Program-made: the position numbers and the translations under genes
From: Eledone cirrhosa
Taxonomy: Eukaryota
NCBI GenBank assembly: GCA_964016885.1
Contig: OZ024742.1
Coordinates: forward strand, 314,030,001-314,094,000
DNA length: 64,000 bases
Direction of reading: 5' to 3'
The notes under the pieces: model-generated
Database searches by the model: none
What the model saw: only the letters and a program-made list of their open reading frames with translations
What the model was told of the DNA's origin: nothing
In this document: piece after piece, positions 591 through 64,000 of the stretch
Layout: every line of letters begins with the position of its first letter
How positions within the stretch are numbered: the first letter of the stretch is position 1

Positions 591-630
591 CATCTATCTA
601 TCCATCTATCTATCTATCTATCTATCTATC
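591..630 (+). repeat. (TATC)n array at the 5' junction of Tx1-A1
   Basis: Direct tetranucleotide repeat that ends exactly where the element 5' UTR begins. Confidence 0.95.
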
Positions 631-850
631 TCTGGGATGGACACACGCGTATAACTTGCTGAGTAAGTTCTGTTTAAATTTCTATAGAAATTCTTGTCTG
701 ATAACTTTAATTTTTGTACCATTTTGTAGAGGGACTGCCAGGTCAAACTTTGATCTGGTCAGTCTCTCAAAATATTCTACGCCTTTAGGCGAAATAGTTA
801 AACAAAAAAAAAAAAAGTTTTTTCTTGTTGAAAAGTCAATATTTTTTTAA

Positions 851-2644
851 ATGGCCGAAGCTTCTTCACCAAAATTCGAAGGAGGAAAGGGGAAGATGAA
901 CTTACAGCTTCCCCCTGCCACTGTCACAGTAGCAGAGGTCAAGAAGAAAGGTCAGCCAGAGGAAGAATTCTCTTCACCTGTTAACCGACAACTTGACGTT
1001 GCCATGGCAACAACCCAAAGAATCAGCAGCAACAGCAACAACAACAACAATGCGACGGACGAAAACAACACCAATAACAATAACAATAACAACAACAACA
1101 AGACCAATAACGGTGACAACAACAACAATGATAACAACAACACCACCAACGACAACAACAACAACACAAACAAACAAAATTTCTCCTTCGCCGAGACGAC
1201 AAGGAAAACCCTCGACTATCTGCCAGTAGATATAACAAAAGCGAAGGAGCTACTGGCGGATGCGAAAAAATATATAGTGTACGGGGAAAATGGTTCATTC
1301 ACAATCCATTCCCCCCCGGAACTAAAAAGCCAGAGACTCCTAAACACGGTCATGTTTAGGACAATCTCGAACAAAAGTAAAAAACCAGCTCAACCATCAC
1401 AGAGCGAGATAGAGCTGGTTTTAAAAGACGTCATGAAGGACATCACCTTCATTCAGAAGGATAGACTCTACGGGAGTCTATCCATTCTCATGAAGGACAG
1501 GGACACAGCAGTGAAACTGTCCATCAAACCAATCACATCCACCGCATACACCTTCTACCCTACGTACATGGGTAGAAGAACACAAAAAATAAAAATCCAC
1601 ACCATCCTGCCGATTATGGACATATGGTGGGTTTTGACAGGTTTTCTGGACCTGGAGGATGACATGCTGGTGTCCATGGGAAAGGCATCGGGTGACGCGT
1701 TCAGTGGAACGAGCCTCGAACTTGTAGTTCAAATGAGGCCCGAAAGGATCGCCCAGATCCCTGAACGCGTCATACTGGATGATCTAACCTTCATCAACAT
1801 TACCGTTGAGGGTAGACGGCCCTCGTGTTACCTCTGCGGAACCAGAGGTCACCTGAGGGCTGTCTGTCCCCAACTTAATAAGAAAACCCCAATCCTGCCT
1901 ACACCACCAACAACTGCACAACCAACACAATCACCACAACTACCACTACAAAAACAATCACCACAGCTCAAACCAAAACAAAACAATGTCCAACCCATCC
2001 CCTCCACTCAAAAAACAAAAACAATTTCCAAAACACCCGTACCGCAAACACAACCCGAAAATATACCCCTCCCCTCCAACGCGGAAGATGACCCTAGTTC
2101 GTCGTCAGACGAGGAGGAGCACTTCCACACAATCAAAAGAAAAAAAAGAAAACACACCTCAGACACACAAATGAAAAAAACCCCTCCCCAAAACATAACA
2201 CTGACACCAACACAAAAGAGCTCACAACAGCAAACAAAAAACACCACACAAAAACAAAAACATGCATACACATACATAAATACAAGAAACAAAAAACTGT
2301 TAAACATTGTGTACAACAACAATCTAATAAAAACACAAGGGCCTAACTTCACCCAGGCAGGGGATTTCCCCCACCTCAAAATGATTAAGGCCCCACAGGA
2401 CACCTATAAAACTTTAAAAAACAATTTTAAAGAGGACGTGGGTCCCCCCTGCGTCGGGCCCATTAACCGCGTCCTCCTAAAAAACTATCCCACCCCCTCC
2501 CCAAACACCCACACAACTCCAAGCTCCCCAACCACACAACACACTGATGCCCCCACACTTCCACAAACCACCACCCCACCCAACAACCCATCCCCCACCC
2601 TAATGGAAATTGTGCAGCCCGATACCCGGGACGCAGAGAGGTAA
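851..2644 (+). CDS. LINE ORF1 protein (Asn-rich N-terminus, probable RRM-like core, one CCHC zinc knuckle, Pro/Thr/Gln-rich tail)
   Basis: 597 aa ATG ORF; CYLCGTRGHLRAVC = CX2CX4HX4C; lies directly upstream of the APE-RT ORF; homologous to the broken ORF1 at 58.7-60.5 kb. Confidence 0.88.
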   Translation: MAEASSPKFEGGKGKMNLQLPPATVTVAEVKKKGQPEEEFSSPVNRQLDVAMATTQRISSNSNNNNNATDENNTNNNNNNNNNKTNNGDNNNNDNNNTTNDNNNNTNKQNFSFAETTRKTLDYLPVDITKAKELLADAKKYIVYGENGSFTIHSPPELKSQRLLNTVMFRTISNKSKKPAQPSQSEIELVLKDVMKDITFIQKDRLYGSLSILMKDRDTAVKLSIKPITSTAYTFYPTYMGRRTQKIKIHTILPIMDIWWVLTGFLDLEDDMLVSMGKASGDAFSGTSLELVVQMRPERIAQIPERVILDDLTFINITVEGRRPSCYLCGTRGHLRAVCPQLNKKTPILPTPPTTAQPTQSPQLPLQKQSPQLKPKQNNVQPIPSTQKTKTISKTPVPQTQPENIPLPSNAEDDPSSSSDEEEHFHTIKRKKRKHTSDTQMKKTPPQNITLTPTQKSSQQQTKNTTQKQKHAYTYINTRNKKLLNIVYNNNLIKTQGPNFTQAGDFPHLKMIKAPQDTYKTLKNNFKEDVGPPCVGPINRVLLKNYPTPSPNTHTTPSSPTTQHTDAPTLPQTTTPPNNPSPTLMEIVQPDTRDAER

Positions 2645-63500: not shown

Positions 63501-63976
63501 GAGGGGCTCTACCCGTTCGAGAAAAGCTCTACAGACACGGGCGTCCGGGTAGGGACCCCGCCAAAAAGATCTGTCCCAGATGCGTGTGCGACGAGGGAAC
63601 CGTTGCACACGCATTGGTACACTGCTCGGTCGTAGCCGATCTGTGGGGCTATGTCGAACGAATACTGTCACGGGTGGGACCGATCCGGTTTACCACCGAA
63701 GCCATTGTAATGATTAAGCCGCCTCCCCCCTTCAAAAATGAAGGAGAGGCGGTGTTTCTGTGCGTGAAAGAGGTTGTATGGTGGATGCGTCTGAAAGGAC
63801 TGAGGTCAGGCACCTTTCTCTCTGGCCAACAACTGATCCGTTTCTTCCGATATCATTTCGGAAGAAGGATCAGGATGGAGAGGGAGGTGCTCCACCCCAG
63901 TCGTTTTTATGAAAGGTGGGTGAAAGTGGCGAGAATGGCCCGTGTGAATGGGCCTTCTCTCTACATCAGCCTGTAG
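60574..63976 (+). pseudogene. A4 ORF2, frameshifted
   Basis: APE, RT (YADD) and CCHC motifs spread over several frames. Confidence 0.9.
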
Positions 63977-64000
63977 GTGGAAAAGATGAAGGAACGAGGG

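Follow-up and report, generated by a model that had tools for sequence, protein, structure and literature searches.

Six retroelement families lie within a 64-kb stretch of the 3.0-Gb genome of Eledone cirrhosa (contig OZ024742.1, positions 314,030,001 to 314,094,000; hereafter the window), each with its own simple repeat motif: two families of long interspersed nuclear elements (LINEs) of the L1/Tx1 type (Tx1-A and Tx1-B), a Dong/R4-like element, a family found in CATA repeats (C1), a short non-coding element (X) and a Hydra-type Penelope-like element (PLE). The sorting of their junctions by motif is confirmed as real and beyond chance. We consider it quite probable that each of the six families sits in one motif in one orientation, likely since its machinery nicks one strand of that motif, and that this preference was inherited and not won in competition. 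The initial annotation of the window had taken the repeats for insertion targets divided exclusively among the families. Their role as targets, each family being specific for motif and strand, holds genome-wide. The exclusive division does not, since tracts are used from both strands, several Tx1 subfamilies share TATC, C1 shares CATA with a second family (C2), and Tx1-A leaks into other repeats. The partition thus holds by strand, not by tract.

Retroelements of the window and their junctions

Self-comparison, lists of open reading frames (ORFs) and Pfam searches yielded four Tx1-A elements, two Tx1-B elements, one long and one short Dong-like element, three C1 fragments and one PLE. A copy of X is listed with them:

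632-6334, plus strand: full-length Tx1-A, a two-ORF L1/Tx1-type LINE, TATC at both ends
851-2644, plus strand: ORF1 of this copy, with a CX2CX4HX4C knuckle
2645-6103, plus strand: ORF2 of this copy, with apurinic/apyrimidinic-like endonuclease (APE), reverse transcriptase (RT) and zinc finger
6594-7681, plus strand: 5'-truncated Tx1-A, in a TATC tract common with the copy at 632-6334
7763-9887, plus strand: young 5'-truncated Tx1-A, TATC at both ends, about 99.4% identical to dispersed copies
26750-31112, minus strand: Tx1-B missing 1.6 kb of its interior, ATT at both ends
31289-37269, minus strand: full-length Tx1-B, ORF2 at 31550-35164 (open frame of 1204 amino acids, aa), ATT at both ends
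37270-37304: AAT/ATT tract common to Tx1-B and the Dong-like element, which stand back to back
37305-40490, plus strand: Dong/R4-like single-ORF element with restriction-like endonuclease (RLE), slightly 5'-truncated (1062 vs 1141 aa), AAT at both ends
40568-40650, plus strand: short second Dong-like 3' piece, AAT at the 3' end, AAG-rich 5' flank
42981-45668, plus strand: PLE flanked by TA on either side; it has an inverted 5' repeat and motifs of the Hydra clade
51800-52459, minus strand: C1 3' fragment, CATA at the 5' junction, decayed 3' tail
52525-52980, plus strand: 5'-truncated copy of X, a 607-bp non-coding retroelement, in (TATG)n, which is the CATA repeat read from the opposite strand
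53017-53312, minus strand: short C1 3' fragment, CATA at both ends
55987-56322, minus strand: old C1 fragment without CATA, with a (TC)n/(GA)n tract at its end and a short interspersed nuclear element (SINE) adjoining it
58526-64000, plus strand: Tx1-A-type element of a different subfamily, TATC at the 5' junction, continuing past the window end

For the Tx1 families the window agrees fully with what had been proposed, all seven visible Tx1-A junctions abutting (TATC)n and all four Tx1-B junctions (ATT)n in element sense. The claimed association of the Dong-like copies with AAT applies to three of four junctions, the AAG-rich 5' flank at 40568-40650 being the exception, and that of C1 with CATA is weaker in the window than claimed (3/6). 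The main PLE has TA at both ends as expected; a small PLE-like piece, on the other hand, has its start only 10 bp away from a (CA)n tract (15155-15254). The long CA, GA and AAC tracts had been described as free of LINEs. One C1 copy (55987-56322) does end in the (GA)n tract at 55908-55986, which is an expanded stretch of C1's own 3' untranslated region (UTR). Finally, the statement that no family occurs in the repeat of another survives only strand-wise: Tx1-B and the Dong-like element meet in the tract at 37270-37304, and the CATA tracts at 52460-52524 and 52981-53016 are common to C1 and the intervening X.

Repeat motifs at junctions across the genome

For each family, top-scoring copies were sampled and longer flanks added, ends being called against natural copies; a junction was assigned to a motif where at least 12 bp of the adjacent 30 bp were covered by that motif in element sense. 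5' ends running off the collected sequence were left uncounted, three duplicates and two sequences repeating window copies were removed, four internally broken copies (L219, L268, L272, L275) received no 5' call, and four PLE ends were placed by hand. Dong-like copies came from a protein search (150 scored matches among 45,964 candidates). Selection by short open frame gave mostly long frameshifted copies, which limited the truncated Tx1-B junctions to 19. Background rates were obtained from 26,600 30-base windows in twenty 10-kb stretches (200 kb, round coordinates) and were 0.11% for TATC, 0.11% for ATT, 0.12% for AAT, 0.30% for CATA and 6.7% for TA.

The initial annotation had named the 5' flanks of truncated copies as the place where its reading could fail. 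These flanks are enriched for the family motif genome-wide, 190- to 760-fold over background and 12-fold for the PLE. Truncated Tx1-A copies had TATC at 20 of 41 5' junctions, TA at three, GATA at one and no tract at 17; the corresponding figures were ATT 9/19 with no tract at 10 for Tx1-B, AAT 23/26 with TATG at one and no tract at two for the Dong-like element, CATA 17/29 with TA at one, GACA at one and no tract at 10 for C1, and TA 24/29 for the PLE. Full-length 5' ends carried the family's own motif in 5/6 (Tx1-A) and 10/10 (Tx1-B) cases. At the 3' ends of Tx1-A we found TATC in 45/88, TA in 10, other repeats in 7 and none in 26, and the own motif followed 70/77 Tx1-B, 48/50 Dong-like, 16/25 C1 and 24/30 PLE 3' ends. 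In a younger C1 subfamily (about 96% identity between copies) CATA occurred at 5/13 truncated and 6/7 full-length 5' ends and at 15/20 3' ends; several of its junctions lacking CATA adjoin SINE DNA. With both C1 sets pooled, CATA was present at 22/42 truncated 5' ends and AAT at none. No junction of Tx1-A, Tx1-B, the Dong-like element or C carried the motif of another of these four, the stray motifs being TA, one GATA, two TATG and minor repeats. At truncated 5' and at 3' ends of the Tx1 families, more than 20% of the flanks are of one type, the criterion used for such targeting in PMC4494074.

A further count took those plus-strand sites at which a 16-bp tract comes no more than 12 bases after the common Tx1 3'-end motif; minus-strand counts were inflated by overlaps and were not used. 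Genome-wide, the motif preceded ATT 5256 times, TATC 3658, TA 299, TC 167, AAT 18, and CA and CATA once each, with 0-1 in reversed-pattern controls. The supply of tracts does not explain this bias, because the 200 kb of background hold 238 TA tracts against 6 of TATC/GATA; CA/TG accounts for 28, TC/GA for 14, and AAT/ATT and CATA/TATG for 11 each. Read by eye, at least 5 of the 11 AAT/ATT tracts touch a Tx1-B, Dong-like or SINE end, and 0/6 TATC tracts clearly touch a Tx1 end.

Strand sharing and the individual families

Pieces of Tx1-B and the Dong-like element lying no more than 120 bp apart were on opposite strands in 40 of 40 pairs, nearly always with an AAT/ATT tract between them; a few of these pairs are duplicated segments. 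Near-identical Tx1-B/Dong-like junctions occur at several places (C18, L035-L038 and L179-L180), probably by segmental duplication, and slightly inflate the neighbour counts. The second case of sharing concerns X, which the initial annotation had missed. Its 5' ends vary, its other end is fixed and tailed with TATG, and its truncated 5' junctions show TATG in 17 of 24 cases and TA in three. Over 30 loci, X and C-family pieces were in opposite orientation 13 times and on the same strand twice. Placing X in the CATA orientation was considered and rejected, the variable 5' ends and the fixed TATG-tailed end assigning it to the opposite strand. No coding ORF was linked to X upstream at the 33 ends examined, and presumably the element resembles the 5' UTRs of RTE elements.

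An abundant SINE (46896-47084 and about 13 other pieces in the window) ends like the 3' end of Tx1-B, followed by ATT, and Tx1-B may be its carrier. Both Tx1-B and the Dong-like element often land in the tails of this SINE.

By architecture, Tx1-A and Tx1-B have an APE, the Dong-like element and C1 an RLE, and the PLE a GIY-YIG endonuclease. The ORF2 of the Tx1 families matches Pfam Exo_endo_phos, RVT_1 and zf-RVT, i.e., an N-terminal APE, an RT and a C-terminal zinc finger, and human L1 ORF2p is the best solved relative of Tx1-B ORF2 (E 4e-53). The zinc knuckle of Tx1-A ORF1 was read from the sequence, this ORF having no Pfam match; the Tx1-clade label is a putative one based on architecture. 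The two ORF2 proteins are 68% identical and their endonuclease domains can be aligned over the whole length, yet the targets differ (TATC vs ATT). TATC is used by several Tx1 subfamilies, 72-85% identical to the reference copies, which also leak into TA and TC. A Tx1 family specific for TC or CA was sought and rejected: at nine loci inspected, the readable 5' flanks were TATC or TATC-like in three, non-repeat in two and TC/CA in none, and the Tx1 3' ends before TC or CA probably represent leakage in this small sample. Tx1-A subfamilies are mosaic; between 632-6334 and L071 identity is about 85% over the 5' half and about 82% over the last kilobase, while mid-ORF2 is near-identical. In Tx1-B, two unrelated halves comprising 5' UTR and ORF1 are joined at one point to the same ORF2 (L182 and L184-L190 vs 31289-37269). 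Both variants begin in ATT, so the exchange of ORF1 leaves the target unchanged: it goes with ORF2 and the 3' end, not with ORF1.

Among listed microsatellite-targeting elements are Kibi in (TC)n, Koshi in (TTC)n, Waldo in ACAY and Mino in AC, both of APE type, and Dong (PMC3812793), and crocodilian Tx1 families are described from (TTCC)n and (TTTC)n (PMC4494074). Like Kibi, Koshi and the crocodilian families, Tx1-A and Tx1-B are two-ORF APE elements of the L1/Tx1 type in a specific microsatellite (PMC4494074, PMC3812793), a likeness of architecture; they differ in their TATC and ATT targets, their invertebrate host and their thousands of copies.

The Dong-like family has one ORF, 1141 aa in many copies, with CCHC and RPD..D motifs, and R2 proteins are its best solved relatives. 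A CAATAAC lead-in specific to the element marks its 3' end, and CAA begins 42 of 50 3' junctions. Dong is described as targeting TAA in most insects, molluscs and cnidarians (PMC7998251), and the single ORF, the RT, the C-terminal CCHC and PD..D endonuclease and the (TAA)n insertion (23/26 truncated 5' and 48/50 3' ends) reveal no difference from published Dong elements (PMC7998251, PMC3774820, PMC3812793). R4/Dong elements are further reported to have a Myb/SANT-like domain at the N terminus and a 5' hepatitis delta virus-like ribozyme (PMC7998251, PMC3774820); the window copy is without its 5' end, and an Rfam scan of the window gave no match, for ribozymes or otherwise, at gathering scores.

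C1 has an RT and a C-terminal PD..D endonuclease and is 32% identical to the Dong-like ORF. No APE match was obtained across the 882-aa stretch scanned, and no intact copy was present among 150 matches, the longest frame being 903 aa. C2, a second CATA-tailed RLE family located elsewhere in the genome (L393:600-3990, L377, L388), shows 53% identity with C1 and 63% with a protein of Argonauta hians, and shares the CATA target (11/12 3' ends). The clade labels of the Dong-like element, C1 and C2 are predictions from architecture, because homologue searches gave almost no named sequences: the trees held no named Dong, and the named relatives were uncharacterised Bombyx, Coccinella and Argonauta proteins. 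A scan of metagenomes with the C1 alignment gave 463 loci, of which 80 were kept and 34 longer ones examined. The eight closest relatives are 39-52% identical to C1; two have CATA at both ends (L398, L399), one has CTTA at both ends (L396), two have CTTA at the 5' end (L397, L400) and three have no tract, and many of the more distant relatives have AAT. In a midpoint-rooted FastTree phylogeny, C1, C2, the Argonauta protein and the close metagenome elements form a nine-row branch (support 100) apart from AAT-flanked rows, and a quick midpoint-rooted IQ-TREE run with other homologues also splits C1 from the Dong-like ORF. C1 and C2 have the architecture of Dong, but target CATA, not TAA, and belong to a separate branch with elements of four-base repeats. 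TATC- and CATA-specific families were not known to the initial annotation. ACAY, the target of the insect element Waldo, includes ACAT, the same repeat as CATA (PMC3812793); Waldo is an APE element, and therefore the CATA-targeting RLE elements would be convergent with it and not members of it. RLE targeting of microsatellites beyond Dong is known from Togen in (TG)n and some HERO families (PMC3812793, PMC4640811), with which C1 and C2 are compared here by description.

The genomic PLE copies have the motifs DKTNN, LRWR, CSCRKPEAC, VIY..YVG, CGLC and CPH and no Pfam or PDB match. As described for Hydra-clade PLEs, nearly all of which insert in TA, they combine DKT, CxCX5C, a C-terminal GIY-YIG without CCHH, the CxxC and CxH motifs and an inverted 5' copy with (TA)n at 24/29 5' and 24/30 3' ends (PMC8557442); likened by these motifs, they differ in having RWR for RWK. 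A hammerhead-like core (CTGAnGA..GAAA, 11-nt spacer) lies near 45640 in the PLE and has no Rfam match.

Copy identities are about 99% in Tx1-A and the Dong-like element, 97-99% in Tx1-B, about 96% at best in C and 90-94% in the PLE, and the families are not all contemporaries.

The window further contains:

15265-16049: putative PLE-like palindromic piece around TA tracts, its PLE identity read by eye
16070-16130, 17982-18132, 22141-22268: small inverted pieces resembling 15265-16049
31133-31236, minus strand: SINE fragment with ATT tail between both Tx1-B copies; the window has about 14 SINE pieces in all
53636-54530: Tc1/mariner-like element, TA at the ends, with helix-turn-helix matches and inverted repeats

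Unclassified inverted or palindromic repeats also lie beside TA-rich DNA (12693-12814 and 13997-14118; 16972-17069 and 17502-17948; 18261-18526).

Origin of the repeats and of the preferences

About 37 Tx1-A copies had both ends available, and at least 9 of them, in imperfect tracts, show target-site duplications of 8-25 bp; these begin at or beside TATCT and contain non-repeat bases. Among 88 Tx1-A 3' junctions, 76 start with TATCT, eight with TATAT, two with TACCT, and one each with TATCA and AAATA. Copies in pure TA (L017, L262, L079) are flanked by TA on either side and lack TATC. Because of these duplications and the pure-TA copies, Tx1-A does not carry its array along, and its flanking repeats pre-exist as targets. 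Element-made tails as the sole source of the repeats are rejected for Tx1-A and less fully for Tx1-B and the Dong-like element, for which a short templated tail is still compatible with the data. The insertions had also been proposed to multiply the arrays; an insertion does cut a tract in two and duplicate a few repeat units, the evidence reaching as far as this split and the 8-25 bp duplicated.

Tx1-A inserts just before TATCT and duplicates 8-25 bp of target. Under standard target-primed reverse transcription, the nicked strand, which would also prime cDNA synthesis, would be the complement of the motif in element sense. The fixed orientation would follow from the nicked strand being the primer. 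If one strand is nicked per family, unrelated families can share a tract from opposite strands (Tx1-B with the Dong-like element, C1 with X), and as a tract is left on both sides of each insertion, later copies form head-to-tail or back-to-back stacks. The site may be chosen by the endonuclease alone or by short pairing with the RNA 3' end, both of which we considered, and a safe-harbour benefit might apply along the lines of published reasoning (PMC4640811). An inherited, lineage-level specificity would be the simplest reading. The preferences look inherited, because Dong/TAA, Hydra/TA and CATA-type relatives recur outside this genome. Several observations weigh against this interpretation. 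The strict rule finds no tract at 17/41 (Tx1-A), 10/19 (Tx1-B) and 18/42 (C) truncated 5' junctions, a relaxed 7-bp rule raising the own motif to 25/41 for Tx1-A and 11/19 for Tx1-B; targeting is strong, yet a clear tract is absent from about half the junctions of the Tx1 families and C. The sampled copies were the top-scoring ones and not a random draw. In L228, a Tx1-B copy, a long ATT tail is combined with a non-repeat 5' flank, as expected if the element made the tail or a deletion followed later. Named Dong, Kibi and Koshi sequences were absent from the trees, so the lineage labels would hold by architecture.

The possibility that the repeats are nothing but element-made tails, those on the 5' side being tails of earlier copies or later expansions and no targeting being involved, seems very remote to us. 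Stacking is common, some 5' tracts are indeed the 3' flanks of upstream copies, and the CAATAAC lead-in of the Dong-like family is element-specific. Against this stand the target-site duplications that contain the motif plus unique bases and the many truncated copies with a 5' motif tract and unrelated DNA beyond it; stacking on tails would, moreover, still need a choice of motif. A more serious contender, although we regard it as clearly less probable than the reading given above, is that pairing of the RNA repeat tail with a nicked repeat picks the site, the endonucleases being fairly unspecific, so that a new tail would bring a new target. It is in line with the fixed phase in which the 3' end of every family enters its motif (Tx1-A 3' junctions begin with TAT in 85/88 cases) and with the obedience of X and the SINE, which have no coded enzyme, to the same rule of motif and strand. 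The Tx1-A sites in pure TA, TACCT and AAATA without extra TATC leave room for a tail of at most a few bases, or one that is not copied, and PMC4494074 holds that the endonuclease mainly sets the target.

We find it unlikely that competition drove the co-resident families onto different motifs and strands while their insertions expanded the arrays they need. The near-diagonal table of families by motif would suit this idea, as would the different motifs of Tx1-A and Tx1-B at 68% ORF2 identity and the avoidance of CATA (1) and AAT in sense (18) by Tx1 3' ends, and the contact of at least 5 of the 11 random AAT/ATT tracts with element ends, as read by eye, would suit array growth. Other observations are difficult to reconcile with it. 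Several Tx1 subfamilies occupy TATC, C1 and C2 both occupy CATA, and tracts are common across strands; the pairings Dong/TAA and Hydra/TA are conserved in other genomes as well, and L398 and L399 again have CATA; the families differ in age (about 99% to 90-94% identity); and 0/6 random TATC tracts clearly touch a Tx1 end. In 1.7 Mb of collected genome DNA, no recurrent ends precede TG or GA tracts, and those before CA, TC, AAC or GTT are the Tx1 3' ends of the pattern search, the TC run of C1 and Tx1 ORF1 repeats. That the families divided the repeats among themselves, as initially suggested, is a conjecture, since the same preferences recur in relatives elsewhere (PMC7998251, PMC8557442, and the metagenome elements). 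Equally unlikely to hold in full is the wider scenario in which competition pushed three endonuclease classes onto separate motifs and opposite strands of shared microsatellites, mutual seeding of targets and self-feeding two-strand stacks helped to build the unusual AAT and CATA load, and the CATA families represent an undescribed ancient RLE lineage on four-base repeats. Distinct integration niches of co-resident elements, defined by tissue, time and chromatin, are described for Drosophila long terminal repeat elements, where whether competition caused the niches is given as unknown (PMC12159745). For the present families, the reading as ecological partitioning is unproven.

Of the five pairings in the initial annotation, two are published (Dong/TAA and Hydra-type PLE/TA) and three look like new targets of known kinds. 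In our literature search, confined to articles as distinct from supplements and the repeat libraries (Repbase, Dfam and that of O. vulgaris), neither Tx1 elements targeting TATC or ATT nor RLE families targeting CATA or four-base repeats were found to have been reported. Dong-R4, L1-Tx1 and Penelope elements are reported as recently active in O. vulgaris, the part of that text examined containing no target analysis (PMC13282606).

The mechanism of microsatellite targeting is described as poorly understood (PMC3812793, PMC8557442). The elements characterized here offer matched natural contrasts with thousands of young copies: a Tx1 pair with 68% identical ORF2 on TATC and ATT, two RLE branches, one on three-base and one on four-base repeats, and single tracts used by unrelated elements from opposite strands. 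Such contrasts make it possible to test whether the endonuclease or the RNA tail selects the site. Annotation and marker design are affected as well, since many AAT and CATA tracts in this genome are element junctions.

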